A DNA stretch of 64,000 nucleotides, from contig OZ316891.1 of assembly GCA_973895155.1 (NCBI GenBank), positions 1,975,324 to 2,039,323 of the forward strand. Direction: 5' to 3'. Position 1 is the first letter of the stretch; every line of letters begins with the position of its first letter. Shown here in pieces: positions 11,191-61,659 of this stretch. Made by a program: the position numbers and the translations under genes. The DNA comes from Marsupella aquatica. Lineage: Eukaryota; Plantae; Marchantiophyta. The notes beneath the pieces are model-generated. The model was not told where the DNA came from. It saw only the letters and a list, made by a program, of their open reading frames with translations, and made no database searches.

Positions 11191-11534
11191 TGTTAGATAT
11201 TGGTCTAGTCTTGTGACTCATGAGCTAACTATAATTAAGCTAACTCGGGTTAGGACTTAGCTAATGTTAGCGGTAGTGCTGTTGTGCATATAGCCAGGGC
11301 TGATGCCAGACCCTGGTGGAACAAAGGCTCATTGTTACGGAGCTAGTTGAGAGATAGGGAGAGCTTGTGCTGTGGATGCTTGGTATGGCCGGTCGGCCTA
11401 GAGTGCAGTAAAGCTCTTGTGTGTTCCCGTGGACGTAGCCTCATGTGGAGGTGAACCACGTATCTCTCTGTGTCGACTATTGTGCGCTGGATGGTTCATG
11501 GGCTTGCCGTTACGAATGTCGTCTATGCTCAACA
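11191..11534 (+). repeat. Copia 5' LTR (344 bp)
   Basis: Direct repeat of 25075-25418; I count 6 substitutions by eye. Confidence 0.95.
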
Positions 11535-12291
11535 AGTGATATCAGAGCATGCCTGGGAGGTGACGAGGTTTTTTCGTGACAGGTTTTTTCCAGCGTTCAT
11601 TGTCGATGGTACATTCAGAGTTTCGTCGCATGAAACTTGAATGTGTGTGGCTGTGCGGATAGGTTAGTGAGAGGGCTTTCTAACGGTGGTTAGAACTCGC
11701 TGATCGGTATCCGTGGTGCGGAGGAATCGAAGTTTGCGTCGTTCAGGTTTTATTCGTGTTCGACGGTTTTTCGGGGGAGAGACCAGAGTTTGTGTTTTCA
11801 ACAGTGTGAGCTGTGCGGTGCGGGAGGCATCGCATGTTGTAGCTCAAGTTGAAGGTTGAAGCAAGCTGATCGTTTTGGTAGTTGATTTGTTGCCGCGTTG
11901 TTACCGAGTGCGACGTGACGAGTGACGGAGGCGTTCAGGTTTTTTCACAAGCTATGGAGCTTGTTCTCATCTAAACCGGGTTTCTCTTCGTGACGTCTGA
12001 CTCGGTGGAAGAAACGCGAAGTGCTACGGCTCAATGGTTTGATCGCGGCGAAGCGGTCGTTTTGAGTCCGGGATTGGCACTTGACGCGGAGTGAGTGTGA
12101 CACAGCAAAATTTTTTTTCTCTGCTAGAGCTGCAGACTATGCTGGTGCAATTTGGCAACATTTCCCGTCGGCGGCGTTCACTTTTCTCGTTGGAAACAGC
12201 AGTTGTTAAGCTTCGTGGGCTACGCGGCGGTGTTGAGTTTTGAGTTTTATGAGAAGTTTCGAAAAAAGATGTTTTTTCGTGATTGTTTCAT

Positions 12292-15200
12292 ATGAGTGAC
12301 TCGGAGGATACTGGAAAAATTGGCGTCGGTGGAGATTCAAGATCGCGATGGTCAGACAGAGAGTCTGAGGAGGAGCTGCTACCGTTTGAGGAAGAACTAG
12401 TGACACCGGTACGATCACCGGTGCGGCGTGCAGTGGAGGAAGCTGTGTTACTACCAGAGTTGTCGGTAGTAGGGAAGAAGAGGGAGATGGCTAGATTCGG
12501 AGGAGTAAAGTTTGAGGTGGAGAAGTACGATGGTCGTACTGACTACTTGCTGTGGGAGAAGCAAGTGAAGGGTGTTCTACGGGCCATGGGCTTAGCTCAT
12601 CTGCTCTCTTCGTGAGAGCAGTATGATGGAGAGGAGGAGATTTCTTTGAGACAATGGAGACAGGAGCAGGTGATTGTTGTCAATGCAGTGATGCTATATC
12701 TCAAGCCGCACATCATCAAGCAGCTGGATGATTATGCGGATTGCACGTCACTGTTCAAGGCTCTAAGAGAGAAGTACTACCTGGAAGATGCGTCAGACCG
12801 GCTGTACAAGAAGTCTCTCTTGATGAGCCTTAGGCTCAAGGAAGGGAGCAAGATGCAGGATCACCTGGATGAATTTGACAGTCTAGCGATGGATCTGTCA
12901 AACTTGGGAAAAGGAGTTGAAGATGAGGATAAGGCCTTGCTTCTGCTAAGCTCCTTACCGCCGTCTTATCAGGGCTTGAAACAGGTGCTCTTGTATAGAG
13001 ATCTGAAGTCCATTTCGTATAATGAGGTGGTGAGCTCATTATTGTCTGATGATGCTCAGAAGAAGCTAGGTCAATCACAGACAGCATCTTCTTCTGGCAC
13101 TGCGCTCAATGTGAACAGGGGAAGAGCAGCGCAGCGCACGAATGGGCAGAACAGGTTTAGATCTACATCACGAGGGAGATCTAAATCCAGAGGGAAATCG
13201 TAAAAGAGGAAGCCTCTTGCATGTTGGAATTGTGGCAAGCCTGGCCACATGAAAAGGGATTGTCCAGTAAAGGTCCCTGCTGCCTCTGCTAATACGGCAT
13301 CGAGCTCGCATGAGGTAGATTTACTCGATGATGATAACATATTGTGATGTCAAAGTTATGCTCTCAACGTAGTGTCAAATCTAGGTAAAGATGACTGGAT
13401 TCTAGATAGTGCATGTACTTTTCATATTTGCTCTAGAAGAGATTGTTTCAGTTCTTACACGGTTTCCAACGGGTCAGCGTTGATGGGAAATGGAATCCCA
13501 TGTCAAGTTGTTGGACTTGGATCTGTAAGATTTCAGATGTTTGATGGTGTTGTGAGAACGTTGAGGAATGTGAGACATATTCCCAGCATGAAGAAAAATC
13601 TCATTTCACTTGGAGCTTTAGAAGCAAATGGCCATCAGTGGAGCTCTGCTAATGGTGTCCTTCATGTTTCAACTGGTACTAAAGTTGTATTGAAGGGAAA
13701 GAGACATAGCAATCTATACGTTTTGGAGGGCAGTGTAGTCTGTGATGAAGCCAATATAACCTTATCTCATGAGGAGACGGCCCGGTTGTGGCACTTCCAT
13801 TTGGGCCACATGAGTGAAAAAAGTTTGGTTATTCTTCAGAAGAAAGGATTACTTTCTAATTTGAAATCTTGTAAGTTGGAATTTTGTGAGCACTGTGTGC
13901 TAGGGAAACAGCACAGGAAACCCTTCGGAGTTGGAACTCACACCAGCAAGGAGGTACTTGAGTATGTACATAGTGATGTGTGGGGTCCAGCCCCTACTCC
14001 CTCACATTCTGGACGGTTATACTATGTCACGTTCATAGACGATTACTCAAGGTATGTGTGGATATACTTTCTACACAATAAGTCTGATGTTTTTGTCACT
14101 TTTAAGGAGTGGAAAGCCCAAGTAGAGAATCAGACTGGTAATAAGGTGAGATATCTTTGATCGGATAATGGCGATGAATACAGTTCCGGGGAATCTGGAA
14201 CGTATTGTAAGGAGCAGGGGATTACCCGTCATCTCACAACAAGTTATACTCCTCAGCAGAATGGTGTTTCTGAGAGACTCAACCGAACACTATTGGACCG
14301 CTCGAGAGTATGTTGAGTCAATCATGCTTACCACATGAGTTTTGGGCTGAAGCTGTCAACACTACAACTTATTTGGTAAATTTTTCTCCATCCAGTTCTA
14401 TTGGATTCAAGACGCCATTTGAAATGAGGTACGGGCGTCCAGCAGATTACTCACATCTGAGGATTTTTGGATGTGATGCTTATGTGCTTACACCTTCCCA
14501 GCTTCGATCCAAGCTGGAGTCCAAGTCAAAGAAGTGCATTTTCCTTGGCTATCAGAAAGGTGTTAAGGGTTATAGGTTATGGGATCCAGTAACCTGTAAA
14601 CTAATTGTCAGTAGAGATGTGTCCTTTAATGAATCCAGATCATCAAAGGAGGGGGAGAGTTCTCAGGACTCCCATACTGACAAGGGGAAATCTCCCATCC
14701 CGGACCGGGTTGAGGGGGAGATTAGTCATGATGCAGTTCATGACAGGAGAGATGGAGAAGCTTCGGGCTTGGAGCTGGTTCTTGTGATGGAACAAGAGGA
14801 GCAGATTGTTGCTGGGGTACCTCAAATTCAACCAGCAGCAATAGCAGATCAGCCTGAGTCATCTACTAGAAGAACTTCCAGTCGTTCTACTAGAGCTCCT
14901 ACCAGGTATGGTCAATGGGCAGACTCATCTAAGCTAGATGATATTGACATTGCACCTGATGAAGATGATATGGCTTTGATCTTGGAAGAAGGAGAGCCTT
15001 CTTCGTATAGTGAGGCTTGTGCTTCAGAGCAGAAGCAAGAGTGGAATGCAGCAATGCAGAGGGAGTTGCAATCTTTGAGTGACAACAAGACATGGGAGCT
15101 GGTGGAGCTTCCAAGAGGTCAGCAAGTGGTGGACAGCAAGTGGATTTACAAGTTGAAGAACAGTCCTTCAGAGGGTGGAGATAAGATCTACAAGGCACGG

Positions 15201-15429
15201 CTTGTTGCCAAGGGATTCACTCAGGAGAAAGGAGTGGATTACAATGAGGTCTTTTCACCGGTAGCTAAGTATTCCACAATTCGGATCTTGTGTCAGCTTG
15301 TTGTGTTTTTTGGTCTGGTGATGGATCAGATGGATGTTGTTACTGCTTTTCTCTATGGCAACTTGGAAGAGATGATCTTCATGAGACAACCACTAGGCTT
15401 TATGAAGAAGGGCCAAGAGAACTTAGTTT
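12292..15429 (+). pseudogene. Copia gag-protease-integrase-RT (5' part), with in-frame stops and a frameshift
   Basis: VEKYDGRTDYLLW (gag), CWNCGKPGHMKRDC zinc knuckle, WILDSACTFHIC (protease), HSDVWGP and FIDDYSRY (integrase), YKARLVAKGFTQ and QMDVVTAFLYG (RT); stops at about 12613, 13201, 13346 and 14158. Confidence 0.93.
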
Positions 15430-16074
15430 CACTACAACACTACCGACCCCTTTTGCGAACCCCGTCCCATCGCAACTAACAAAGGACCAAATTATGAAAT
15501 TCCGGCGTTTGCGAAACGCTACGCATCGCAACCCTTTCGCATTCTTTGAAACCCACAGCTTCGCAATCGGACTTTCGCAACCCCTTCGCAACACCTTCGC
15601 ACACTGCGAAACTTATTTTATCGCACATAAATCACATTTATGCGATCTCGACAGACTCTTTATCGGTTTGCGACGCGCTCTGAACTATAACTTATTTGCG
15701 AAGCTGTTTTCTTGACAATTCCGTTGCCATTCATATGGTATCGCATAACTGCGTCAGTCAGGGTGTCGCACAATTGCGGAACCAAAAGTATTGCAATATT
15801 CCAATACTCAATGTATGGCACGTTTGCGATAGTATGGCGTTCGCATGTGTTTTGCAAGGATAGTTTGAGGGCTGGGTTTTGTATATTTGGGTTCATAATT
15901 GGGTTGGGGTCTTATTGCTCCACATGAAGATACCAAAGCAAAACTTTATATATGCCAAAAATCCCTAAATGTACAAAAATTAGGGTTTTTGAAAACCCTA
16001 TGGGGTATCAAATACCAAGACACTGTCCTTTGACTAATCCATATGCCATATGGAGTGAACTACATCTGCATCCT

Positions 16075-18122
16075 CTAGAATGGAGCCCGCCTACTCCTCT
16101 TTGCTGGCCTCTTCCCCTTGTCCTTCTTGCTTTGGGCGGGACGAGCTGGACGGGAGGGGGTTGGTGGTGGTGGTGGTGGCGGTGGTGCCTACTGCTCCTC
16201 CCCATCTGGCTCATCCTCATCATCGTCATCATCCTCATCATCATCCTCCTGGTCTCTTGGTGTGCTAGGTGTGGCAGCACTCCCTGCCCCTCTGGACCCA
16301 CTCGTGGTGGCCCCGGTAGTGTCCCCATCATCAGCGCCGCTATCCTCCTCACTGCTATCCTCACTCCCCTCCTGCTCCTCCTTATCCTGCTTCCATGTCA
16401 CAAGGTTAATTTGGGTTTAGGGTTAATAGGAAAAATGTATAAACCTTATAAATGGAATGGGTGCGGGTTTAGAAAGGGTACTACAAATCACTCACACTAG
16501 CCAACTCTGCATCAACCAACTCAAAGAGATGTCTGGCCCCATGCTCTGCCCCTATCTCCATCTCCTTTGTTGTTATCTTGTGGTGGTACCTCTTATACTA
16601 CCACAAAAAAATGAAACACCAAAACATAAGGGGCCCGGGTTAGTAACTAAGGGTACTTAAGCAAAAAACGAATCCTAAAAAGGGTAAAAAGGGTACCCTA
16701 ACCAGAAAAAAACCCCATTACCCTAACAAACATTTGTCACTCGACACTAAACAGTTTTCAAAATGAAACAAGCTTTGCGAAACTCCCACCTTCGCAAATT
16801 CAAATATATTTAAGTTTGCGAAATAGACTGCGAATCGGATTGCTTCGCAATGGCTTCGCAAACCTTACGGGAAAAAGGTTATAATAGAGTTTGTGAAACA
16901 ATTGCGAGGCAACCCGCTTCGCAATTGTTTCGCAAACTGTGCTTTTAAAAAAATCCGAGAAATGGCTAAGGCACGCAATGTGTCAGGGTGACCTAAAACG
17001 AAAGTGGAGGCCATAAGGGGTAAAGCAGAGGTCTGCGAGGGGCATTGCAGGCAAGCAAACAACAATTGAAGGCGAAGGAAAAGAAGCAGGGGAGGAGGGG
17101 AGAGGACTTCAGGCCGGGAAGTCCACCTTGCCCCATCTTGTGTGTGGTCTTGGGGCGTTTGCTGACTCGGTCTGCTGCAAGGATGAACTTCTGGGGTGGT
17201 GTCCCCACTTCATCCACGATGTGCTGCAGCTGAGAGACCTTCTCAGCCAATGCCTTGAGGTCTTTGTCTGACTTCCCGGCCTGAAGTGCCTGGCCTCCTT
17301 CTCCTTCCAGAATTGGAGGTCCTTGGCTGCTTTCAGCTGCACCTCGACCTTATAGAACGCGTTCCACACATCCTCTATGAATTGCACTAGCCTCCTCACG
17401 TTCCTGTACTCCTGCAAGCTTGCCAGGTAGGCCCTCACCTTCCTCCTATCATGGTATCGTGCTTGAGACATTGAATTCGAAATTCTATCTGCAAGCCACT
17501 GGTCATCAATCTCTGCTCCATTTATGAATGAATCTTTGACCTAAGTCATTACTTTCCTCTGCTCTGCTCTGCTTAGTTTCCCCCACTCAACACCTCGTGC
17601 AAAGCTAGTCCTCACAGCAAGTCTGATAGTGCTCTTTGCCCCAGTGTAGGCCAACTCAGTAGGAATGCCCTCAACCAAGGCAATCAATGGCAGCTTCTTC
17701 CTCTCTTCCTCCTTTTTCCGCTGCGCCTCACGTTGTGCTCGAATCTCATCTCGTTCCTCCCTTCTCCTCTTCTTTTCGAGGGCTGCAGGAGAGAGTACTC
17801 CTGCCTTAGCCCTCTCCTCCTTCTTTCGTTTCTTCTCTCTGGCCTTCTCCTCAGCTACAGCCTTTGCCTCTTTCTCCCTCTGAGCCTGCCCTGCTGCAAC
17901 CCCGGTTTGCAAAGCTTGCCCTAGAATTGCACTCAAAGAAGCAATCCCAACTGGTGTACTCAAATCCAAATGGCTCAGCTGTGTGGCATTGAGATGCTCG
18001 GCCATCAAATTCGTCCATTGATTACTCTCCTCATTCCTGTTCCCTCCATTGCCATTGCCACTCCCACTCCCACTCCCACTTGCCCCTGCCCCATCCCCTC
18101 CACGCCCTCCACTAGAATCCAT
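16075..18122 (-). pseudogene. CACTA-1 TnpA/Ptta-like accessory gene (multi-exon; stops and a frameshift)
   Basis: ORF 18122-17541 reads through a TAG into FINGAEIDDQWLADRISNSMSQARYHDRRKVR and HKMGQGGLPG, homologous to the 54026-52833 ORF; small exon at about 16598-16497 (YKRYHHKITTKEMEIGAEHG); acidic/Pro-rich last exon. Confidence 0.65.
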
Positions 18123-18456
18123 AGCTATCCAACACCAAGCGCGCGCAAGCTCTCCTCCTGCCCTCCCTCACTTCAAAAAACGTCGAATGGGCCTCGTAAC
18201 CCGGCGGGAAGGTCCGAATGCCCAGACAAAACACATTTGCGACGCAGTCCGCATCGCAATTTGCGAATCAGCCCGCTTCCAAAACAAGAACCCCCCATAT
18301 TGAGAGATATGGACGTTACGGACGTCATACAATAGGGGCTTCCTCATCCCATGTGGTAAGTGTTTACGCCTTAGTTTCTACCCTATTTCCACATCGCAAT
18401 GGTGAAGGTTTTTAATTTCACACCTCTTGTTGTTTGTTTTGGTTTGGGTGGAATAG

Positions 18457-19272
18457 GTATCTAGTAGGCCTAGACCTGCGGCATCAGCACCTTATGTCCC
18501 ATCACAAGGTGTTCTAGATGCTATAGGCAATGCATTCTCACAAGCCTTGGGTCTAGCAACAGCCCCCTCCAGTCCTAGGGCAGTTGGGGGTGAGCCTGTT
18601 GTCCCAAGAGGGAGAAAGCGTTCCAAGAGACGGCCCCGAGGGGATACTGATTTGTACAAGGCAGTGGTTACCGATAGGTGGGGTGATTGTGAGTTTACTG
18701 GCAGATGTGTTCCTATCATCAATGACTGGGATCCCCAAACTCTTGGTTTGCCACAAGAGCTTTCCTATGGTGAGGAGGTAGAGGTTTGGGGAAGACGTTG
18801 GGTTATCAAACCTTCCACACTTGGGGATAGACATGGCTATGGAGTTTTTGCTTGTGAAGACATCATTGTGGATACCGAGAGTGGTAGTGGTGGACGCGGT
18901 CGAGAAGGACCTACGTTGTTTCCTTATGGTGGACCCATCTACAAGAGAAGACATTGGAACATGATCCTTGCACAACATCCTGAGTGGAAGACTTATGCCT
19001 TGGAGTTAGATACTTTTGATGGAAACACTAGGAGGTATAGTGAGCAGCGGGTGATAGATGGGGACCCCATACGAACTGGGAATATAGCTGGTTTCATAAA
19101 CAGTACTGTGGGGACTCGCCCCAAGCGTAGGCAAAATTCTGAGTGGGTTTTCATTGAGGGTCCTCCACCAGCCCCTTATGGCCAGACATATCATCATGAC
19201 CATTGTCTGGTTGTAGCTACTAGGACCATTCACTCAGGTGATGAGTTGTCTACTCACTATGTGTGGGATTAG
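18457..19272 (+). CDS. CACTA-1-encoded SET-domain protein (terminal exon nested in TnpD intron 1)
   Basis: HGYGVFACEDI (motif I), FPYGG (motif II), IDGDPIRTGNIAGFINST...QNSEW (motif III-like), VATRTIHSGDELSTHY (motif IV); phase-0 acceptor ...gaatag|GTA at 18456/18457; uninterrupted frame. Confidence 0.85.
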   Translation, partial: VSSRPRPAASAPYVPSQGVLDAIGNAFSQALGLATAPSSPRAVGGEPVVPRGRKRSKRRPRGDTDLYKAVVTDRWGDCEFTGRCVPIINDWDPQTLGLPQELSYGEEVEVWGRRWVIKPSTLGDRHGYGVFACEDIIVDTESGSGGRGREGPTLFPYGGPIYKRRHWNMILAQHPEWKTYALELDTFDGNTRRYSEQRVIDGDPIRTGNIAGFINSTVGTRPKRRQNSEWVFIEGPPPAPYGQTYHHDHCLVVATRTIHSGDELSTHYVWD

Positions 19273-19415
19273 AAAATGACCATACACATGGCGTTTGGCC
19301 ACATTTTGTATTTACACCAGTACCGATATTATTTCATGTTTGCACACCCCCATATATTCTTCTACATGTTGTAACTATTTGCTTTGTAACTTTCAATTGT
19401 TTGCATTGTTTTTAG

Positions 19416-22400
19416 AATGTGCGACCCTCTCAAAATATGTTATCGCGGAGATTGAGAGCAGCATATCGGGAAATGGGTATGCCGGAAGAAGGACAAGGCT
19501 CTGAGTCACATTCCTCATCAAGTGATAGTGGAAGCAACAACCCTGATCGCAATGTACCCAAAACATATGAACAGGTTATTGATGACCAAGATAGAGCCAT
19601 GGATGATTTTATGGTTGATTGGTTTGGTGTTGACGTCCCTGGTGATGATGCTGAGGTGTCTGCTGATCAAGGAGGTCATGTGCCCCCCAATGATCCACAA
19701 CCAAGACATACCCCCGAGGGACAGCGCCAATGGGAGGAAGCAGAGGAACATGCCCGAACTCCTATTTATGAGGGTGCTCGTTTGAGTCGTCTTTCTGCTA
19801 TCTTGGGGTTGATGAATCTACAGGCCAAACACAAGGCAAGCAATGCCTTGTTATCTGATATGTTTGCACTTTGCCATGACCTTATGTTACCTTCTGGCAA
19901 TGTGTTGCCAGGAACTTGGAAGGAGGCCAAGCATGTTCTCTCATCAATTGGCATGGAATATCATATCATTCATGCATGTGTGAATGATTGCATGTTATTT
20001 CATGGGGCCGATGAGAAGAAGACACAGTGTACTGAATGTCATGAGCCACGGTATGACCCCAACATGATTACAAAGAAGGTGCCAAGAAAAGTTGTTTGTT
20101 GGTTTCCCATCATTCCTCGATTGTTGCACATGTACAGGTGTTCTGATTTGGCAGAGTTGATGGTATGGCATAAGACTCATCGATCAGAGCCTGGTGTTAT
20201 GCGGTTGCCAATTGACTCTCCTGTAGTCAAACATATTGAGGAAACATGGCCAGACTTTGCACATGATCCTCGTCATGTGAGGTTGGGATTGGCATCTGAT
20301 GGGGTTAGTCCTCATGCCCTTGGAGGCAAGGGAAGACCTACATCAGTTTGGCCTGTGGTTGTGATGAATTACAACCTTCCACCATGGCTATCCATGAAGA
20401 AGGGGTTCCTCTTGTTGTCTTTGATTATTCCAGGTCCAAAAAAGGTGAAGAACTTTGACACTTATTTGGCACTATTGATTGGAGAACTCCAAAAACTGTG
20501 GGGTGGAGTGTGGGCATATGATGGCAAGAAAAATACAGGAGACATTCCACGTGTATTTAAATTGAGAGGGGTAGTTTGTTGGACAATGCATGACTATCCT
20601 GGTAAGATGACTTTTTGACCATATGCCACCCTTCTTTGATATGCTCTTTAATATACTTGTTTGTCATGTGACAACCCTAACATTTAGTCTGGTTTTATTT
20701 TTGGTGTAACCAGGGTTTGGCTTTGTCTCTGGATTGCAAACTCAGGGGTACAAAGCTTGCTCCACCTGTGGTCCACAATTGCAAGATATGGCAATTTGGT
20801 CCCCATGGCTTAGGAAGATTGTTTACATTGGGCATACAAAGTTTCTTCCGATGGGGCATGAGATGAGGTCTGACCCACTTTTATTTTCCTCCTTTGACAT
20901 GCCCCTTGGTGATATGCGGGAAATTCCGGAACCAACAACTTTTGGGCATTGGAAGTCACTAGCTGATAGGGTGGCAGACCCTGATGATCCCCTCACCTTT
21001 GATGGTACTGGGTTGACGAGGTGGAGTATACTAGCCAGTTTGCCCTATTGGTCAGAGTTGAAGATCCGCCATCTTTTAGACCCCATGCACATAGAGGGAA
21101 ATGTGGGGAAGGCGTTGATAGCTCATTTTTATGGGGAGAAGGACACTAACTTCAGGGAGGCATGTGAAGAGTTGGAAATGCATCCAGATGTATGGGTACA
21201 AGTTGATCCTGCCACAGGTTTGGAACATCGTCCTTCTGCTCCTTGGGTGCTTAGTGTTGGCCAAAGACGTGAATTCCGGAATCGTATAGGGGAGATGCGG
21301 TTTCCTACAGGCTATGGTGCCAATTTGAGGAAAGCTTTTGGGATGGAGGACAATCACAAATGGCCACGGTATCTCAAGACACATGACTATCACCGCTTAT
21401 TGCAGCATATATTGCCAGTGGCAATTATAGGGTTGGGGACCAAAGAAGTGCAAGATGCCATTTGGTCATTGGGTCGTTTGTTGAGATGGATATGCTCAAA
21501 GGAGATATATGTGGAAGAGATTCCTGGAATGGAGGTATTGGCTGCTGAGGTGGTTTGCAAGTTGGAGAAGGCCCTCCCTCCTTCCTTCTTTGATTGTCAG
21601 GTTCATTTACTTGTGCATCTTGTGAGGGAGGTTGCCATTGCTGGTCCAGTTCATTGTCGATGGATGTACTGGCTTGAGCGTTACATGTCAGTCTTGAAGG
21701 CTTATGTACGTAACCGTGCACGAGTGGAGGGAAGCATAGCTATAGGATACTTGGCTGCAGAGAGCATGTTTTATTGTAGTAACATCTTGGCCACCATTGA
21801 TCGGACTTTACCACGTACTTGGATGGAGGAGAGGCAAGAGGAGGACCGTTTAACAGGAGCAACAAAAACACGCATGCTTACATCAATAGAGTGGACACAG
21901 TTGAATACATTCATGTTGAGTAATAGCAATGTCATGGATGAATGGAGGGAGTTTTATGACAATGCCAAAAGAATGAGTCAAAGGGCAAGGATTTTTCCTA
22001 AGTTGCATGAGTTTATGAAGGAAAAGTTGGTTGAGTTGGATGGCATTTTGGCACAAGGAGGAGATGTCTCACAGTTTCCTACTATGACAAATGACATTCG
22101 GACCATTGTTCATGGCCCTTTGAGAGTGGTAACATCCAAGACGGCCATGTGGACCCAAGGGAGACACTTCAGGTTTCACTAGTTCCTAACCTTGTTTTCC
22201 ATATTCATGTACTACTACTTAAGATATAGTAATCATTTTACTTAAGATAAGTGTGTTTTTCTCTTTTGGTATGAAAGGTTCCTCATAACATGATTAGTGT
22301 TTTTTGTGTAGTAGTAATAATATATGGGTCTTGTTAATTTCAGGATTTCTTCCCTTGATGAGAAGAGGGCTCGTACTTTTGATTGTGGAGTTCAAGGGCA

Positions 22401-22830
22401 GTTTTGTCAGGACTCCCGGAGTAGCCGACATGACAGGAATATTGTTCGTGATGTTGTGCCACACTATGGGAAGATAGAGGAGATTTTGGTGGTCTTATAT
22501 GACAACCAATCTAAGTTTGAGGAGTATGTCTTCAAGTGCAAGTGGTTCAAAGTGAACCTTGTTGGTAATAATCGCACTGTACTCCAAGATGAGAGTGGGT
22601 TTACACGGTTGAGGACAAGTGCCACTAGTTTTCAAGCATCTCATTGGCAAACGTCAGAGCCATTTACTTTCCCATCTCACTTGGAGCAATGTTTCTACGT
22701 TCCATACCCCTTAGACCCAGAGTGGTCACTTGTCATCACATATGTGCCACGGTCTCGTTCCATTGTTTCAGACAAGCCAGACACTATTTTTGTGTCAGAT
22801 GTAGAGGACATTGAAGGTGACCAAGTGTGA
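19416..22830 (+). CDS. CACTA-1 TnpD-type transposase; exons 19416-20601, 20714-22172, 22344-22830 (plus an upstream exon ending at 18355)
   Basis: IHACVNDCMLF, RLGLASDGVSP, WPVVVMNYNLPPW, WTMHDYPG, LDPMHIEGNV, LKTHDYH, PPSFFDCQVHLLVHL, GPVHCRWMYWLER, YGKIEEI and FKCKWF; GT-AG introns join in frame with no stops. Confidence 0.95.
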
Positions 22831-23729
22831 GAGACACTTATGGATATTTAAACCAAAAATCTATATCATGGATTGTTCATGTTGTTTCTTAATTAATATT
22901 TCATACACCATTAGTGTGGTAGGTATTTTCATTTTGGACTCCTACTTCAAAAGAGGTCATGCATATAAGTGACATGGGTACTCCCTCCCTTATCCCTCCT
23001 CCCTCTTTGAACCCAAACTCTCCTTCCTCTTCCAAAAACTCCATAGCTTTTTCTCCTCCCTCCCTCTTCGCTAAAGTCTCTCCTATTTTTAGTAAACCCT
23101 CTTTGGACTCCCTTCTTCCTCCGTCCCTCATCCACCTTCCAACTCCCTTCCTCCCTCTTTCACCTTTCACCTCCCTCCCTCCTCCTCCCCCATTCAAACT
23201 CTAACCTAGATGCACACATAAGTCTAACATAAACGTTTGCGAACTGTTTGCGAAACTAAACAAATCCCAACCAAATCGCAATTCTGCCATTTAAATCGTT
23301 TCTCAATTATTCCATACTATACGCTTCACTATTTTGCGATATCCAGACCATCCCACCTTTACCATCCACATCGTTTCGCATATTTGCCATACAAACCCAT
23401 CGCAAATTGTTTGAAGCTAACCTTTTCGCAAACATCCTCCAATACTAATTGTTTCGCATCATTAATGTTACCGTGGTTTCGGACTTTCAGAGTGGTCACG
23501 GAGCCTTCGTTATGTGTTTTGTAATCTCTGTAGTTTCGCAAACTATTGTGATACAATAAAGTTCGCAAAATGTTTGCGATGCAAATCGCATGGAAGACCA
23601 AAGTTGCGATACCACAAGTATCGCAAATTGCGATGCGTATTGAGTCATCAACGGTTTGAAGCATCTGGAATCGCAAACGTGTGTCCGGACTCAAATGAGC
23701 TTCGCAAAAGGGCAAAATATGTTGTAGTG

Positions 23730-24867
23730 TTTGCAGATTGCTCAAGTCCTTGTATGGATTGAAGCAGTCTCCCAGACAATGGAACAAGCGGTTTGATGAT
23801 TTCATGCTTGCTCAAGGTTTTACAAGGATGGTGTATGATCCTTGTGTGTATACGAAATCAATCAAGAATGATGTATTTGGTTTCATCATTCTGGTGATCT
23901 ATGTGGATGACATGCTGATTGTGGCTAAAGATCAATCTGAGGTTGACAGTCTCAAGGCGAAACTGAGTGCTGAATTCAGGATGAAGGATCTTGGTAAGGC
24001 CAAGAGGATCTTAGGGATGGAGATTTTTAGGAACTCTGAGACTGGACAGTTGTGATTGAGTCAAGGCCAGTATGCGAGGAAAGTACTTGCACGATTCAAC
24101 ATGGAGAACTGTAAGCCAGTGAGTATTCCTTTAGCTTCACATTTCAAGTTATCATCGGCTTTCTCTCCTACGGATGCTGTGGAGAAAGGTCTGATGGCTA
24201 AGATTCCTTATGAGAAGGCAGTAGGCAGTCTGATGTATTTGATGACTTGTACTAGGCCTGACTTGGCCCTAGCGATGGGCAAGGTCAGCAGATTCATGTC
24301 AAATCCAGGGAAGATACATTGGGAAGCTGTGAAGTGGATTCTCAGGTATCTCAAGGGTACACAAGACTATGGATTACTATTTGATAACAGATCAGATAGA
24401 ACATTAGTTGGCTATGTAGATTCTGACTATGGAGGCTGTCTGGATACAAGGAGGTCTAAAATTGGGTTTGTTTACACTCTTGGAGGAGGATGTATCAGTT
24501 GGAAATCTACCTTGCAGAAGTGCATATCTCAGTCTACTACAAAAGCAGAGTACGTTGCAGCAGCAGGAGCAGCAAAGGAAGCAATTTGGTTGGATAAGTT
24601 GATCGCGGAGATGGGTTTAGAGCATGGAAAATGACTCTAAACTGTGATAGTCAGAGTGCTCTTCACTTGGCTGCTAACCAGGTGATGGATAGCAGGGTGA
24701 AGCACATTGATATCAGGTACCATTTTATCAGGCAAGTAGTGTCTGATAAAACTTTTGAGCTAGTCAAGATTGATGGAAAGCTCAATCCCACTGATGCCTT
24801 TACCAAAGTGATTCCTTTGGAGAGTTTCTCAAGACACCGTGCTACTTTGCAGGTTTTGCAGTTGTAG
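23730..24867 (+). pseudogene. Copia RT (3' part) and RNase H
   Basis: LYGLKQSPRQW, IYVDDMLI, GYVDSDYGG, CDSQSALHLA and KHIDIRYHFIR; stop at about 24053 and frameshift at about 24632. Confidence 0.93.
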
Positions 24868-25074
24868 TGAAAGTAGAGTTATTTAGCAATGTGTGACTAT
24901 TTGTATATGGATTACTCATTCCTGTTAGGCTACGGCTTAGTTCTAGTTAACCCTTAGTTAACCCTTGTGGTTTTTAGGGGGAGACCTGGTTTGGTGATTG
25001 TCTAGAACTTCCTGCTGAGGATTCCATATGGTAGCATTTAGTCCAGTCCCCAAGACAAGAATCAAGGGGGAGTT

Positions 25075-25418
25075 TGTTAGATATTGCTCTAGTCTTGTGA
25101 CTCATGAGCTAACTATAGTTAAGCTAACTCGGGTTAGGACTTAGCTAATGTTAGCGGTAGTGCTGTTGTGCATATAGCCAGGGCTGATGCCAGACCCTGG
25201 TGGAACAAAGGCTCATTGTTACGGAGCTAGTTGAGAGATAGGGAGAGCTTGTGTTGTGGATACTTGGTATGGCCGGTCGGCCTAGAGTGCAGTAAAGTTC
25301 TTGTGTGTTCCCGTGGACGTAGCCTCATGTGGAGGTGAACCACGTATCTCTCTGTGTCGACTATTGTGCTCTGGATGGTTCATGGGCTTGCCGTTACGAA
25401 TGTCGTCTATGCTCAACA
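25075..25418 (+). repeat. Copia 3' LTR (344 bp)
   Basis: Direct repeat of 11191-11534, followed by the CATTG TSD. Confidence 0.95.
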
Positions 25419-49840: not shown

Positions 49841-51863
49841 TTTATGAACAAGGAATCAGCTTTTCACAACAACGTCACTTGGTTTCAAGCCTCCAAAATA
49901 TTCTTTACGCCTATGGAGAGGGAGAGGACGACTACCCCCTCCAGGTCAGTCTTTGTTTCTTTGCTTCAATTACTTTTGGAATTTCTTTGCAAATTGTGAA
50001 TACATGAGCCTCATCGTATTCGGATGCTCCTTGTGTTCATTGCAGGAAGGAGTAGTATCGGAGACTATCTCGGAGTTCGTAGCACCACCAACCCCTACAC
50101 CTGAGACTCTACTCCCAAACTTCATAGCGCCAGTCGCAGCAACAGCACCAGCCCCTGTATCGTGTATATTAGTCTCGGAGTCCTTACCACCACTTGCACC
50201 AGCACCACCAGCCATTGCACCACAGATTGTACTATTAGAGTCGGTACCAGTAGCAGCAGCACGACCACCACCAACAGCCCCTACACCACAGATTGTAAGT
50301 CTCTAAAGTGCAAACTTGGAAGTCATTCAATTGCAATCTAGTCTGAATACTTAAACCCCAATGTCTTTTCACTCCCCTAAGCATTCATTTCATATATTGT
50401 AGGGACAAAGACGAAGGGGAAGGGGTGTACCACTGGAGTCCCCATCCCCAGTACAGAAAGCAGCACCATCCCCTCCAATGTCAACAAACCCCTTCCAGGT
50501 TTGCCTTTGTGTTTTTTGTAAAAACATATGTTTGCAATGCTTTGCAATGTCTGAATACAGCTGCCTCATTGTCTTCGCCGTGCACTGCAATTTCTTCATT
50601 CTAGAGACGGAGCGGAAGGACAAGTGGAGGGGTCGTAGCAGTGGAATCACCAGCACCAGCCCTCGCACCATGGATTGTAAGTCTCAGAAGTGCTTACTTG
50701 GAATTCGTGCAATTGCAATGTAGTCTAAATACTTCAACCCCAATGTCTTTTCACTCCCAGGTTTGCCTTTGTGTTTTCGGTAAAAACATTTGTTTCCAAT
50801 GCTTTGCAATGTCTGACTACATCTGCCTCATTGTCTTTGGTGTGCACTGCAATGTCTTCATTCTAGAGACGAAGTGGAAGGGCTCCTGGAGGGGTTGTAG
50901 CAGTGGAATCACCAGCACCAGCCCTCGCACCACAGATTGTAAGTCTCAAAAGCGCTTACTTGGAAGTTTGAATACATCACCCTAATTGTCTTCTGCGTGC
51001 ACTACAATTTCTTCATTCTAGCCCATGCACGGGAAAGAAATTTGATATAGGTCAGCCTGGTTTGCCTTCCTGTACAAGGCCACATTCCTTTCTATTCATA
51101 TTACTTTGCAGGGGTCACAACTACATTTTGACTCAACTTACCGTTGCCTCACAACAGGCTAATCTCGACGTATGAAACTCTAAATGGAAACACGGAATCC
51201 CCAAGGTAAAATTGGCAACATTCTGGACGTCTATATTGACGTGGTTTCTTACGTCGTCTCACACAACGCACATTGCCACACCGCCAACGTGGTTCTTTGT
51301 GTGCACGACATCCTATGCATCGTTAGAGTACTGGGCTAATGTAGATTTCCATGTCCATTGAACGTCGCACGGAGTGACGTTAATACAAACAAAACGTCGT
51401 GATTGACGACGTTGACTCCCTCGTATAAGACAACGTCAGTGTTTGTAACGATGTCTGGGACACCGTTCCGTTTGATGTAATGTGAATTCGTTCATTGGTT
51501 TACGTGGTGTGATAAGACGTTGTTATCATATATCGATGTCATGAACGACGTTGTGTGAAAGTGGAAGACTACGTCTGGGTCATACCTTGTGAGATGCTTG
51601 GTAACTTTATGAATGAACGACGCCCCGTATATTATGTCGGACCCTGCCATACAACCTTATTGGAGGTTATAAACACACTTAAGCTAGGGTTACAATGGGG
51701 TGAGCATTATTTGGGTAGGCAGTTGGGGTTTAGGGATACACATTCAATATGCATATGGTATAGACGTTGTAATCCGCGAAAAGTGTCGTATTGGATAATA
51801 TTGTTATGGGCCAAATATGTACAAAATGGAGGATGAAGTCGGGCAAGTAAAATAGGCTATACC

Positions 51864-54026
51864 CTAGTCACGCTCAGTCCGCCTGGTATCACGTCCAGAC
51901 CTGCGTGTAGAAGTGGGTTGTACGCCTCTCGGGCGCAACTCGTACCTGGAGTCATCCTCCTCTAAGCTAGTGGTACTGGGGGACAACGTATCTGCCTGTG
52001 TTGCAGCCCTATGAGTAGTCACTGGCCTACTCCCCTTACTGTGTGGAGGTCGCCTAGTGTCATCCCTCCTCCTCTCCCTCTCCCTCCCCCTCTGTCTATC
52101 TGACCTATCTCTCCCTATCTCCCTCTCTCTCCCTCCCTTGGCTCTCTCTCTCTCCCTCCGGCCTTGGCCACTAGTACGCCCCCCATGAGTCTCTGCCTCC
52201 TCCTGCCCGCAATCTACGTGAGCCTCCTCCTGCAAACCCTCCTCGGGCGGTACCCTGGCTGGCAAGTGATCCTCAGGGATGGCCCGTGCAACCAAGCCCT
52301 CCGGAGGAGTCCAATCCTCCACCTGCATGATAGCATTCTGGTCAGTTAATGTCACAGAGTAGGCCTAAAGTCAACTACAACCTAGCAATCACTTTAGCTC
52401 TTACCCGGTGATCCTCCGGGACTGAGGCCAACTTGGCCCATAGCGCTGCCGGGCCATACCGTTTCGAGTACAGCCGCTCCTCCTCCGACGGCTCGGCATC
52501 GACACCAAACTTGCGTTTCTGCGAGAAAGCAAAAGAACGTCGTTCCTAAGCACGTATTCAACCCTCTCAGCATCGGTGCTAACGTCGTTCCATGCGTTGC
52601 ATATCTAGTTAACGTCGCTCTAACGACGTTTTCACTAAAGCGGTACATGTAACGTCTCAAGGACGACGTTCTTCCTAAGGTACGTCTCAGATGAAGTTAC
52701 AAATCAAAGTTAACGTTGTTATGGACAACGTTATGAATGAATCAGGCGACGTAATTTCAAAATCTCGACGTTACACTATGGTTTACACCGGAGCAACGAA
52801 ATGAAAATGTGGAAGTTGGGTCCGAGACTTACGTAGGTTGCAAGGAACCCTCGCCATCCTCCTTGCCCCCAGAAATTGGTTACTAGAAGGCGTCCGCTAT
52901 TCTTTCGAGCTGCAGTGGCTTTGTCACCCATGTGCACTCGTTTTCCTACTGGGGTGTCTGGGGGTGCTTCAAGTTCAGACACGATCAAGTTGAAGTCCGA
53001 CTTGGCCATCCCTTCAGGCTTACGGTACTGCCCTGTCTTCTCGCATTTCATTGCTCGGACCTTGCTTCTCCACCTGAATCTTCTATCAGCAAGGAAACTC
53101 ACAATCTTCTGCCTGATGTGTCGAAAATCAATCTCTCTGCCATTCTTGAATCCGGCTTGTATGTCATTGAGGAGTACTTGAAACTTCTTTGTATTGTGCA
53201 CGAGGTCCTTCCAAGTCGTCCACCCAGGGCAGTGTTTCGTACAGCAGACCTGCACTCGATTCGTTAGCGCCTTCTCATCAAGCACCTCTGGCTTCGCATC
53301 AAAAGCAGCCAGGCTGATGACCGGCAGTTGTTCTTTGCTGGCAGGAGTAGCAACGGTTCGGTGAGGAGAAGCTCGCCGATGACCTCCTCCGATTGAATGT
53401 GAATGTCGATGTGACCTTCGACCTCTCCTATCTCTGTCCACCCTCAAATCTCGTTCAGCCCTTTTTCTCTTGTGTGTGCTGCGGCTGTCTCTTTCTCTGC
53501 GCTCCTTTCCCTTCCCCTTTTTTTGTCTCCTCTCAATGCTACTATTGCTACTCAAAGAACGGGAACGACGTCGCCTTCTGTGTGTCCGCAACTCTGTACT
53601 TGAATCATCAGGCTCATATCTCTGAATCCTCACTTGGCTCTTGATGGGAGTAACACAAGGTGGTTGTGAATCCGGCTCCATCCCAGAGAATGAGGGATAG
53701 TCCCAGACTGAGTCCATCAAGGGCGGGAAGGAAGCAAGAGGATCAAGTGATGCCCCCGGAAGGTCGCGCAAGAACTCTGGTGCTTGAATGTCGGGCTCAA
53801 CGTTGGATGCTGGAGCGTTCTTTTCTATGTTCTGAAGGTATTCCAAAAATCGTGACTCCTTCATCCCAGTTCCTCCCATGAATTGCCAACTCTGATTGAA
53901 AGCATCAATCAGTGAATGTGCTGACCGCAAAGCTGTTCGAACCTTCTCCACCTCCTCTGGGTCTTCCATGGAAACTTTCACAGCATCAAAGTTGATACTG
54001 AGGGGCAGATAAGCTGGACGTGACAT
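51864..54026 (-). CDS. CACTA-2 TnpA/Ptta-like accessory protein; exons 54026-52833, 52518-52405, ~52322-51864
   Basis: WKDL...FKNGREIDFRHIRQKIVSFLADRRFRWRSKVR...KPEGM...NFWGQGGWRGF is homologous to the CACTA-1 minus-strand gene; phase-0 GT-AG introns. Confidence 0.7.
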
Positions 54027-54544
54027 TGAGGCGAGACTTGGAGCAAATGTAGATGACCTTCACAAAGATTAGAGCTTCACTAGAGCTTCACTAGAGCCAC
54101 GAACAGAACAAAACACTAGATGTGGGGTGAGGTGTGTGCGGAATGGTCGAATGACTCACATTCGACACTATGCCCCGGTATTTTCCGAATAGAATGCGGC
54201 AGAGTTCGCAACAATGTGTTTCCGCCGTTCTCTGTCTATTTACGTTGTTTTTCACGACGATGCCCTAATTGATCGATTAGTAATACGTTGTGCTAGACGA
54301 CGTTTTCATTTAAACGTTGTTCTGTACATCGTTAAAAGGTAGGGTTTACTGTAACGTCGTGTGGGGTACGGTACATGACGTAGGGTTTAAGAAATACGTC
54401 GTGTATTGTGTTCTCGGCGACGTAAAGTGAAAGTACTTTGTTTTACTTGACGTAAATATTGTGGTACTATAGTGGTCCCGACATTCCATTTCCAAGGCTG
54501 AGTTTGCAAGTTTGCGTGTATATGTGTGTGTACTATTGCAGGCC

Positions 54545-57500
54545 ATGGCCTCGTGCTCATCGGAGTGGTCATCTGATGATCGCTATGATGGAGGTGCACA
54601 TCACCGAGACAGGTACCGCTCTCATGATAGGGGGAGGGAGAGGAGGAGGGAGCACTCACCTGCGAGGTCGAGATACCACTCAGTCGAGAGGAGGAGGGAC
54701 TTATCATCTGATAGGAGCAGGCACCATTCGTCTGAGAGGAGTTGGGATCAGTCTTCAGATAGGGAGTACCGATCTAGGGATCATCGACATCGGGAGCGAC
54801 GAAGGCATAGGAGGTCCCATCGATAGTCCCACCGCCACCGCCGGTCCAGGTCTCCCTCTGATGACCACACACCCCGACACCGATCACCCATGCCGGAGGA
54901 TGAGGATAGGTTTGGAGAGGCCATGGCTGCCCTTCAGGGGATTGGCCCAGTCCGAAAGATGCCCTGCCCATGTAGTAGATGCAAGGGCGTCGTCTCCCAC
55001 GAGAGGACCACTGTCCTTAGCCATTTAGGCCTCCACGGCCGTTACGTACCCCCGACACATCAGGTAATTCATAAACCTTTATTGACACTATTCAATTCAT
55101 TAAGTCCTTATTTTTGAATATAACATGTTTGGGTTTCTTGAGTTTCTTGAGTGTTTAGTTGGAATGGTTTTTTCCCTGATTTCTGAAGTTCTCTTGTTCA
55201 CATGTGAAACAGATTTTGTGTGTGGTCTCTCCGCCCTTGGACCACATGAGACAGGTTGCACGTCGCGCGCTCACAGCACTAGTTCCCCCATCAGCACTCG
55301 ATGCCACGTTAAGGGCAATAGACCGTGTTTTTGATAGGAGGAGGAGGGTCATTCGGAGTCACCCTATTGAGAGGGGAGTAGAGGTCACCACTAGACCTCG
55401 GTCCATTACGTCTCGTACCCCTAGGACGGTGCCGCCACACTGTCCTTTTCTTGATGCCTCTTTTTCCCGAGCACCAAGAGAGTTAAGAGGGAGAGCCTTG
55501 GACATCATAAAGGACTCATTCCCAACCCAGTTTGGCCTCCCTATGGTCCTGCTTGTTCGGGAGCCTATTGTAGTTTGGGATAGGCCATGGGTCCTCCTCC
55601 CATCCACATTGGGAGACGACGTAGGTCTTGGATTATTTGCACTTGTGGATATTGTGGTGCCGGAAGGTTGTGCACCTGAGGACCTGCCCGAGTTGATTCC
55701 ATTTTATGGGCCAAAGTATTCGGCCCATAGATGGCGTATCTTGTCTCGCCAATGCCCAACCTTTGGTCGGTATGGCATGTCACTAAAGTTGGACCCTAGG
55801 TATACTCAGATGGATGGTTACTCCCCTCGTACTGGAAACTTGGCGGGTTACATCAATAGCACAGTGGGGTGTCGGCGTTTGGGGTTCCGCCCCAACGCTG
55901 AGTGGCATGAGTACCATGACCAGAGTCACCCTCGTTTGCCCTTGGGATGCAGTCACTACATCCTGACACATGCCACCCACACCATTCGAGCAGGGGATGA
56001 GATATTTGTAGACTATGATTGGCATTGAAGATTATATATGTTATTGATCACTTATTCATTACTCAGAGTGAGACTTATATTGGATTCTTTGACCTTCATT
56101 ACCTCATGCACTATTGGGAACACATTGTCTAATTTGGGGATGACCTTATCTAATATTGACGTCTTGCATAGGATGGTCCAAATATAACACCTACACCTCA
56201 TCCATCGATGATGACGGAGTCAGCCCATTCGTTCCACATGCGAGCCACATTATCTTTTTCTGACGACGAAGATGTTGAGAGTGATCATGTGCATGAGGAC
56301 GAGGATGTGGACGAGGATGTGAATGAGTACCATGATGCACATGATGACGATTTTGATGAAGATGTAGAGGATGATATGGATGCACCTATTCTTGAAGAGG
56401 ATGCTTTTGCGCACCTTGTGGACATCCACTTTGGACCTCATGTACCTGAGGGTGACCCTCCTGTCATGGAACTAGACAAAGATGATTGGGACCAATTGGA
56501 AACTGAATCCAGGACTCCGCTATTCCAGGGTTCCCCGACCTCACGGTACATTTCTCTGAGGTGCTATTATAGTTTTTCTACTGTAATGTTGCTTAAGGGT
56601 GTGCATAAACCCTAAGTCCCCAATTGGACCATCCTCAATGGCATGCCTTAAACTAATTAAAAAGCTGGTTTCTTTGTGGTTTTCAATGCAAATGCAGGTT
56701 GGGAGCCACACTCTTGATGTTGAATTTACAGGGGGTTTTCAATGGATCAGATGTCCATACAGATGCACTCTTTGCGTTGTTCCACAACAAACTCTTGCCT
56801 CAACCTAACAACCTTCCAGGAAGTGTGAGGGAGGCTAAGAAGTTGTTATCATCTATCGGACTGGCGTTAGAGACTATACATATGTGCCCTCATGGGTGCA
56901 TCTTGTATAGAGGACCGTACTTGGACCTCACCCATTGCCCAATTGAGCGATGTGGCCTTCCACGGTATCGTCCTGATACCATTGGAGACAAGATTGCTGA
57001 GAAGGTAATGACGTCCTCTCTGTACCACATCTGTATTTTAGTAATTTTTTACGTACTTTACGGCATTTTGTGTCCCTTAACGTTGCCCTCGTGAGTAGTA
57101 CGTCTTTCAACTAGAAGTAAATAACCCTAACGTCTCCCTTGTGATTTTTACGTCTTTCCATACGATGTTTTTTAGTCCAACGTCGATTTTTGCAACGTAA
57201 AAGTTTAGAGAACGTAGATCTGCTCAACATGAAACTATAACGTCGTTCTGGACAATGTTCACTTTTAGGATACGTAGTTATGTTCAATACAGAAGTAATA
57301 CGTCGTATTGAACATTGTAAAGATTTTTGGAACGTAGTTATCGTCAACGTATTTGTGATGTTAACGACGAAATGCCGCCTCATGGTTGTTGTACATTTCA
57401 GGTACTGAGGTATTTTCCAATCACACCCCGATTGCAGCATCTATACCGGCGAAGACACCTATCCTCCCTACAGACTTGGCATGCCGAGACCAAATCCCCA

Positions 57501-60462: not shown

Positions 60463-61098
60463 CACTATCCTTCACACCCTCCATTTATATGTATTGGCTA
60501 TGCCCACCTTCCACATATATATTGACATATGTTTCGACGTTTGAGATCTGGCAAACTGGAGGGAGAGTTGTGCAAAGTTTCTTCTTTCCTCACTTTATAG
60601 CTAAGAACACATTAAAAAGCATTAAACCTCGGCCTTCGAACAACCTTCAATGGGTCCTAGCACGTAAACCCTTATCACGTAGGCCAATTGACACTTCGAA
60701 CTTATTAACGTCAACTTCAACGTCATTAGACAATCAAAGGTCCCTTATACCCATAATGAAGACGTTAATCTATAGTTACGTCGTAGATACGTTGTACAAA
60801 CGACGTATACATAGTACGTCCTTGGTTTACCTCGTAGTAGACGACATAGATTGTGTTACCGTGTCTTAAACGACGTAAACGTTTATTTAACCATTCTTCT
60901 GATGACGTTCAAAGTTTCAATCGACGTTACTCACAAAACACATTACAAATATAAATTGCCTGGGAGGGACTTTTTATTCATGCGCTCAAAAACATACAAC
61001 GTGCACATAAGGCATGAGTCTGACTCCAGTCTAAACTGATTCCAATCCTAGGCAAATGATGCTCCTCCGTCTCCAGCTGACCTTGGCACTAGTGTAGC

Positions 61099-61659
61099 TT
61101 AAGGGGTCCCTTCACCAGACCAGTAGTACTCCTCATCTGCCTTCCTCTTTTTGTACGAATCATGCCTATTGCTGGCGTTCCATTTCTTGCGGACCACTGC
61201 TTCACCAACCTTCAGCCTTTCAGCCTCAATCTCAGCTGCACAGCTTTCCTTGTAGTCATACATCACAATATCAAGTTTAGTCGGTGACAACTGACATTTA
61301 GCCAACTTTGGTGGACAAGCCTCACCATCATCATCCTTGGGCGTATCGTCCAGCATCAAATCGTCCCCTGGATGCAGCAAAAACTCTTCTGGGTCCAACT
61401 CCTTATTGCCCAGAATGGAGTACTGTACCCAACAAATCGAGATGAAATGCACGGACTCTGCAAAGTGCTCGATCAATCCAGGATAGTCACTGAAGTGCTC
61501 TGTGACTTGTTTCCAGGTATTGGCAAGCAAGTATTCCGTCTTTGAGTTACAAAACTTGTCTATCACACCTCCACGACAAAAAAAGCCACGAACAGTCTTG
61601 TCTTCTTCACCTAGCGGAAGAAAACAACAGTGGACATCCTTGAATATCTTACGTACCAT
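61099..61659 (-). CDS. CACTA-2-borne single BRCT-domain protein (186 aa)
   Basis: ATG at 61659; IFKDVHCCF...RGGVIDKFCNSKTEYLLA...HFISICWVQYSILGNKELDPEEFLL fits the BRCT pattern (F-x-G/D, GG turn, T-x-LI, W-V-x-x-S-I, terminal aromatic). Confidence 0.7.
   Translation of the reverse strand: MVRKIFKDVHCCFLPLGEEDKTVRGFFCRGGVIDKFCNSKTEYLLANTWKQVTEHFSDYPGLIEHFAESVHFISICWVQYSILGNKELDPEEFLLHPGDDLMLDDTPKDDDGEACPPKLAKCQLSPTKLDIVMYDYKESCAAEIEAERLKVGEAVVRKKWNASNRHDSYKKRKADEEYYWSGEGTP

Follow-up and report, generated by a model that had tools for sequence, protein, structure and literature searches.

DNA transposons of several superfamilies have been described with SET domain genes of their own. Such genes are reported from the HarbingerS and MuDR families of the oomycete Phytophthora (cited in PMC12730594), and SET-carrying Helitrons are mentioned in 10.1101/2025.02.11.637652, which also describes Plavaka, a member of the EnSpm/CACTA superfamily in the red alga Bostrychia whose accessory gene PAG2 combines a SET domain with a DNA methylase. 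In maize En/Spm and in Arabidopsis EN/SPM3 and 7, two proteins are made from one gene by alternative splicing (PMC13547354). Our subject is a CACTA transposon, element 1, in a 64,000-nucleotide stretch of the genome of the liverwort Marsupella aquatica (hereafter, the window), in which an exon predicted to encode a SET domain lies between the first exon and the transposase (TnpD) exons. A sequence-only reading of the window had proposed that one first exon can be joined in frame to either SET or TnpD; the splice sites of element 1 do permit both products, and their phases recur in a second element of the window and in related loci.

As far as the accessible portions of these sources describe it, PAG2 resembles the present case as a SET gene of a CACTA-superfamily element, proposed to modulate chromatin, but there an accessory gene of its own encodes the SET domain together with an N6-adenine methylase, whereas the land-plant elements described here, 8-11 kb long, have a lone SET exon nested in the transposase gene, whose first exon it would share; the two SET domains are set side by side here by description. 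HarbingerS, MuDR and Helitron elements are likewise DNA transposons with their own SET gene, but they belong to other superfamilies and hosts, the SET gene is described in the available passages as an accessory gene and not as a nested exon, and the transposase of element 1 is of the Transposase_21 and not the Harbinger type. The two products of En/Spm are TnpA and TnpD, whereas the alternative product here would be SET; the likely TnpA-type gene here is separate and head-to-head, in contrast to the head-to-tail order given for the split Arabidopsis families. VANDAL VANC and the fungal TET/JBP transposons offer a functional model, since their element-encoded modifiers are read as counter-silencing, but in the passages available they act on DNA methylation and have no SET fold (PMC12730594). 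The doubt first voiced about SET as a CACTA component is thus met by precedent in HarbingerS, MuDR, Helitrons and red-algal Plavaka, while a land-plant CACTA case did not come to light: full-text literature, searched at the level of titles and abstract openings, yielded neither a bryophyte or other land-plant CACTA element with SET nor the shared-exon layout, and Repbase Reports, subscription journals or bioRxiv supplements may hold one. SETMAR (Metnase) also combines SET and transposase in one gene, as a domesticated in-frame fusion of a host SET domain to a mariner transposase. Its SET domain (3bo5) scores Z 8.2 against ours, and in the present case SET and TnpD are parted by a stop and belong to a mobile element.

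Layout of the transposase gene

Element 1 is a member of the CACTA/EnSpm superfamily, with CACTA-starting terminal inverted repeats at 15430 and 23729, a 3-bp duplication, subterminal repeats and TnpD-type domains (Table 1). The repeats, TTGCGA/TCGCAA, occur internally and at both ends, with clusters at 15-17 kb and 23-24 kb. The splice sites that had been proposed were borne out: the donor at 18356 and the acceptors at 18457 and 19416 are all in phase 0, and the SET exon is open for 271 codons to a stop ending at 19272. TnpD exons 2-4 join into 1043 codons with the final stop only, and match Transposase_21 (E 4.5e-37), DUF4218 (E 4.8e-34) and DUF4216 (E 7.3e-8). The stop at 19270-19272 that separates SET from TnpD is kept in related loci, so the gene is not a SETMAR-type in-frame fusion. 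The SET frame opens after a stop and contains no Met until residue 169, so the SET exon needs an upstream exon. The spacer between the SET stop and the TnpD acceptor likely provides the 3' end of a SET message and the branch region.

Table 1. Features of elements 1 and 2 and of the insertion site of element 1, in window coordinates
Feature	Position	Strand	Remarks
SET exon, 271 codons + stop	18457..19272	+	residues 51-62 form a basic stretch, and the folded domain starts at about residue 62; Met 169 is the earliest
Intron, 101 bp, GTAAGT..AATAG, phase 0	18356..18456	+	between the exon 1 donor and the SET acceptor
In-frame ATG + 26 codons	18218..18295	+	lies in promoter sequence that bears repeats
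Remnant 3' end of coding exon 1 (HIERYGR..SSSHV)	18296..18355	+	zinc-ribbon cysteines, start codon and leader exons missing
Spacer, SET stop to TnpD acceptor, 143 bp	19273..19415	+	143 bp in element 2, 146 bp in L003
TnpD exon 2	19416..20601	+	Transposase_21; SDG and DYPG acidic motifs
TnpD exon 3	20714..22172	+	end of Transposase_21, HIEGN motif, DUF4218
TnpD exon 4 + stop	22344..22830	+	DUF4216
Element 1, CACTA transposon, 8.3 kb	15430..23729	+	10-bp terminal inverted repeats CACTACAACA, TTT target duplication
Divergent gene, likely TnpA-type partner	16080..18122	-	3' end approximate; label presumed from position and a motif
Copia retrotransposon, target of element 1	11191..25418	+	344-bp long terminal repeats at 11191-11534 and 25075-25418
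Element 2, second lineage, same layout	51116..62168	+	13-bp ends CACAACTACATTT, ACGT-type repeats, GGT duplication; exon 1 and TnpD contain stops
Element 2 exon 1	54545..55063	+	whole CPCSRC..HLGLHG zinc ribbon; interrupted by one in-frame stop; donor in phase 0
Element 2 SET exon, open, phase-0 acceptor	55213..56028	+	TnpD acceptor at 56172, phase 0

The same layout recurs in related elements. The SET exons of elements 1 and 2 are 39% identical over 195 residues and are placed between three matching phase-0 sites. A further 39 metagenome loci (L-numbered) carry SET relatives, nearly all from one Sphagnum-like family; a Sphagnum-named protein shares 89-97% identity with L002, L009 and L015, and L001 represents another family. 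Across the related loci the donor is GT (20/20), the SET acceptor is AG in phase 0 (17/20) and the TnpD acceptor is AG (22/23). The expected linkage of this SET clade to TnpD was found: TnpD lies downstream in 20 of the 24 loci with at least 400 bp on that side, the other four being SET copies that are interrupted by unrelated sequence, and exon 1 lies upstream in 19 of the 20 loci with at least 400 bp on the other; the left end CACTACAAC is reached by 5 of the 39. Riccia gene models that run SET into Transposase_21 have the same adjacency in distant lineages, and the zinc ribbon of the family first exon is joined to SET in database gene models of three genera (Calypogeia, Sphagnum and Riccia) as well as within one frame in the Logan protein P0053. 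Since most loci share one family, independent support comes from about four lineages, namely element 1, element 2, the Sphagnum-like family and L001. This layout makes it likely that exon 1 is spliced alternatively to SET or to TnpD.

A protein search returned 41 relatives of the SET exon, the named ones from Calypogeia and Sphagnum, with 360 members in one Sphagnum cluster, and a profile search returned 131 clusters at 50% identity. The 30 relatives looked up (28 of the 131 clusters plus 2 from the protein search) comprise 11 from Riccia, 2 from Calypogeia and 17 without an organism. Longer fused relatives were sought among 6543 candidates and none was found, which is weak evidence. The distant relative P0106 (Calypogeia) has N-terminal Cys-Cys-His repeats in place of the transposase zinc ribbon, and the N-terminus of P0118 also differs; SET domains of this type may ride other elements or be domesticated. 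P0107, P0115, P0123 and P0057 are Logan clusters of 2-4 members each of equal length, and are candidates for expressed or domesticated copies.

The exon set of element 1 is less complete than had been claimed. Its SET exon and TnpD are open, but the shared first exon, which had been placed from 18218, is a truncated zinc-ribbon exon. In relatives the family first exon reads MSSSS..PPRQLCxCxxC..HIxRFGR..GASSS, a zinc ribbon (CxCxxC..H); the likeness of element 1 to it begins only at about 18296, and the ribbon cysteines, sought in every frame of the first-exon region, are absent. The ATG of the divergent gene and the exon-1 donor are 234 bp apart in element 1, compared with 869-1144 bp in 8 of 9 measurable loci and 3370 bp in the ninth (12 loci were considered, of which 3 were not measurable). 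The simplest reading of these distances is a deletion of about 650 bp or more that would have removed the 5' part of exon 1. Given the loss of that part, the start at 18218 is likely accidental, an ATG probably brought beside exon 1 by the deletion and not the family start. Short blocks with splice-like flanks upstream of the start codon, at approximately L001:290-490 and L003:2760-2980, are conserved between two families and are likely non-coding leader exons absent from element 1.

The divergent gene, which we take to be of TnpA type from its position and a motif, is also broken in element 1: a TAG at 17541-17543 ends the frame early, and the frame shifts near 17300. The stop position reads CAA in L003 and L007 and TAG in L009 too. 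The gene is conserved among relatives, and a Pfam scan gave no match, including none to Transposase_24. Lacking its zinc ribbon and start, and with its divergent gene disrupted in these two places, element 1 is a damaged family member and not an intact, autonomous example. Element 2 is damaged as well, and the claim therefore belongs to the family and not to a copy. A perfect 18-bp inverted repeat (17106-17123 and 17270-17287, 146 bp apart) lies within the divergent gene near its frameshift.

Fold and constraint of the SET exon

Structure prediction and fold searches agree with the proposal of a SET fold. SET is the sole Pfam domain seen in the 271-residue frame, at a score just under the family cut-off (PF00856, E 2.3e-4, 21.9 bits against 22.4); the element 2 protein scores 21.5 bits, and 13 of the 42 relatives scanned exceed the cut-off. 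A structure model of residues 62-271, built from 73 aligned sequences, has a mean predicted local distance difference test score (pLDDT) of 91.6 and a predicted template modelling score of 0.87; an initial model was poor (pLDDT 56), yet already matched SET. With Foldseek, all 39 rows among the matches listed are SET domains (best E 1e-6), and a second aligner places the model on Set1/COMPASS with Z 12.1 and a root-mean-square deviation of 2.6 Å over 124 residues. A single-sequence query (P0001) found no match among solved structures at E up to 10, and a narrow profile found three, all unrelated; SET proteins were retrieved by the broad profile only. From these models we take the exon to have a SET fold.

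All four motifs that had been named, GYG, PYGG, GNIAGFINST..N and ELSTHY, are present, the third without the canonical NH histidine. In the 73 aligned rows the scaffold residues are well kept (G129 in 69/71, Y/F157 in 73/73, N215 in 64/73, N227 in 73/73, E263 in 64/66 and Y268 in 59/63), and the glycines of motif I, G127 and G129, and the ELxxxY residues E263 and Y268 are conserved in the alignment. We assume for the glycine motif and Tyr268 the catalytic roles that they have in known SET enzymes. In a comparison of the family profile with solved structures, LegAS4 is the best match (E 3e-7, the next at 2e-3) and reads YINFS at the NH position. LegAS4 is described in the accessible part of its report as methylating H3K14 (10.64898/2026.05.29.728679). 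LegAS4/RomA of Legionella (PDB 5czy, 8sr6, 8swi) resembles our protein as a compact SET domain without the NH histidine and has the highest identity among the fold matches, 28%; it differs in being bacterial, in its ankyrin repeats, and in a fold that is no closer than those of Set1, PRC2 and SET8 (Z 10.8 against 12.1). No origin of the SET exon is inferable from this match. Predicted viral SET structures are no better a match than cellular ones (TM 0.47, on the template modelling scale), and scans that reach close relatives only found none among 15 candidate stretches in viral contigs or among 34 in prokaryote genomes.

The ratio of nonsynonymous to synonymous substitution rates (dN/dS) of the SET core, for element 1 against nine loci, is 0.25-0.32, with bootstrap upper bounds of 0.37-0.49; for TnpD it is 0.12-0.15 in eight comparisons. 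These values are far below 1, and the neutral one-off capture that would have contradicted the initial proposal is not borne out. Among Sphagnum-like copies, SET dN/dS is 0.41-1.09 over 15 pairs, as for dead copies. Because dN/dS between lineages is low, the SET exon seems to have been kept as a protein in active lineages, and we regard it as an integral and selected part of this CACTA family. A sign of extra constraint on the SET exon (dS 0.7 against 1.0-1.4 for TnpD) was rejected, since fourfold sites differ alike in the two (0.51 of 65 and 0.52 of 233).

Possible roles of the SET protein

We propose that one promoter and one zinc-ribbon exon would serve two messages, a short one for SET that ends in the spacer and a long one for TnpD. 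The short product, a zinc ribbon joined to SET, is predicted to methylate histone lysines; the shared ribbon, in a putative targeting role, would bring it to the element or to its transposase, and the resulting mark would keep the chromatin of the element usable against host silencing. The splice choice would then set the ratio of chromatin helper to transposase. Conservation of the active-site residues suggests that the SET protein is probably catalytic. A histone substrate with an effect favorable to the element is a tentative proposal, which we hold at slightly below even, while the account as a whole, comprising a selected SET exon, a splice choice on a shared zinc-ribbon exon and histone methylation that aids the element, has our modest preference. 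A bolder version is possible but, in our view, rather doubtful: that an old and diverse bryophyte CACTA clade uses the splice switch to make a zinc-ribbon-guided histone methyltransferase of its own lineage that defeats silencing, and that this package jumped between leafy liverworts and peat mosses.

A number of observations weigh against parts of this account. PRC2, SET8 and SET7/9 all score within about one Z unit of Set1, a range that takes in H3K4, H3K27, H4K20 and other enzymes, and because enzymes so different match so closely, the target lysine and the direction of effect are unreadable from the fold. SET7/9 and other non-histone methylators score level with the histone enzymes, and the protein is a minimal SET domain without reader, pre-SET or post-SET zinc modules; it may act on non-histone proteins and so tune transposition directly, with its own TnpD, the TnpA-type partner or silencing proteins of the host as targets, and a first exon common to TnpD would suit a complex with it. 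We consider this unlikely, given that the best profile match, LegAS4, is a histone H3 enzyme and that the basic stretch ahead of the SET domain could bind DNA or nucleosomes. The same tie in fold includes PRC2, G9a and SET8, as would be expected if SET wrote a repressive mark on the element as a self-limiting brake, and the small residue T266, opposite a Tyr of MLL1 at what we presume to be the F/Y switch, would allow di- or trimethylation. Such a brake is nevertheless improbable for a family this widespread (a Sphagnum cluster of 360, and 131 clusters at 50% identity), and the published transposon chromatin genes are read, in the passages available, as anti-silencing (PMC12730594). It would be expected of a dead SET domain, serving as a binding module or as a decoy for histone tails or host silencing factors, that active-site features be lost, and some are: the His of the NH signature (RFxNHS) is replaced by Ser in 70 of 73 rows, although the Asn is kept in 64 of 73; the protein stops three residues past the catalytic Tyr with no post-SET zinc cage; and residue 265, a Phe in 31 of 32 relatives, is Ser in element 1. 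PR domains, several of which are reported inactive, are also among the fold matches. Yet proteins that are only 22-45% identical retain the glycine motif, Asn215 and both tyrosine positions. Because active LegAS4 also lacks that His, its loss argues against a canonical SET enzyme and not against a protein that works like one, and by this analogy need not abolish activity. A catalytically dead protein is therefore, in our judgment, quite unlikely.

Other points bear on the splice choice itself. The proposed splicing rests on layout and on zinc ribbon-SET gene models that are database predictions, P0053 could be an intronless genomic copy, and the 39 loci are nearly all one family and not independent cases. 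Codon 8 of TnpD exon 2 is a Met in element 1 and in each of 16 loci inspected, and related SET exons have a Met at codon 4 or 6 in 19 of 20 loci, which makes separate starts possible. L001 and L009 share with element 1 a donor-like site in phase 0, at 19051 in the window, and some gene models (P0031, P0096, P0119, P0125) fuse part of SET to TnpD. SET and TnpD may thus be separate genes with their own starts, or one fusion, a reading that partly overlaps with those above. We think it rather unlikely: the SET exon of element 1 has no Met before residue 169, the seven codons ahead of the TnpD Met are conserved from the acceptor onward, the zinc ribbon is a transposase-associated domain, and in three of the fused models (P0031, P0119 and P0125) the catalytic end of SET is missing or disrupted, although P0096 keeps it. 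That a host SET gene was captured once and is decaying without function is barely credible. It would fit the dN/dS of 0.41-1.09 among Sphagnum-like copies, but is refuted at the family level by values of 0.25-0.46 between families; the exons of elements 1 and 2 are open, 39% identical and in the same position, and no ordinary plant SET family was recognised among the matches inspected.

For the SET genes of oomycete and red-algal transposons, the passages available report no functional test, and if the bolder version above is true, no earlier case of a histone writer encoded by a transposon would have been shown to work in a land plant. The bryophytes include the laboratory models Marchantia and Physcomitrium. 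With the family present in bryophytes, a group with such models, a histone mark written by a transposon for itself would be directly testable, and the shared zinc-ribbon exon offers a concrete mechanism of targeting and dosage. The family is also a compact, divergent SET lineage annotated as host 'SET domain-containing proteins', and such annotation of transposon genes can inflate chromatin gene counts in Sphagnum and Riccia.

Relationships of the copies and other features of the window

The closeness of liverwort and Sphagnum copies makes the family a candidate for transposon transfer between bryophyte classes. The SET core of element 1 is 68-74% identical to Sphagnum proteins, compared with 38-46% to Riccia and 43% to element 2, and for its TnpD the identity is 70-80% with L015, a Sphagnum-like locus, but 46-52% with Riccia models. 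The host gene RFT1 has the opposite trend, with 61% identity to Sphagnum and 68-69% to Riccia in this comparison; in a separate one it is 85% identical to Calypogeia fissa, 64-65% to Riccia and 57% to Sphagnum, which points to a leafy liverwort as the likely host. Fourfold sites of SET differ at only 0.51. A tree of 75 rows groups element 1 and Calypogeia P0004 with the Sphagnum rows in one clade (100/99) that excludes Riccia and element 2, and monophyly of eight liverwort rows is rejected by the approximately unbiased test (p-AU 0.0035), for a group that was named after the first tree and leaves two long Calypogeia rows outside. Transfer between liverworts and Sphagnum is the likely reading of these comparisons; old paralogy would also break the liverwort clade.

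Element 1 splits the reverse-transcriptase frame of a Copia retrotransposon, and the empty site, with the insert removed, reads through. The long terminal repeats of this Copia element, with just 6 differences in 344 positions, set a maximum age for the insertion, which is thus recent.

In element 2, the termini begin with CACAA and not CACTA, and the ACGT-based repeats extend into its introns. Its exon 1 matches Transpos_assoc weakly (E 2.4e-4, 21.7 bits against a cut-off of 27.7). The divergent genes of elements 1 and 2 have no likeness in the parts compared. A copy of CACTACAATT at 51000 was rejected as an end of element 2 because it is part of a local repeat. An extra minus-strand frame at 61099-61671 has no Pfam match.

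Elsewhere in the window, a gene for a SNF2-family helicase (presumably CSB/RAD26-like) at 5912-9486 and one for an EF-hand protein on the minus strand at 43533-44153 are ordinary host genes. RFT1 (26400-28088) and a UbiA-family prenyltransferase gene (34139-35506), the latter taken by us to be homogentisate solanesyltransferase-like, each consist of one long exon. The homogentisate solanesyltransferase-like gene has many introns in other plants, and intron loss in this lineage is possible for both genes. At 48330-50007, open frames of 273 and 232 codons have no Pfam match and are possibly another transposon gene; the longer resembles a zinc-finger-led repeat protein, and the shorter holds 12- and 111-bp tandem units.

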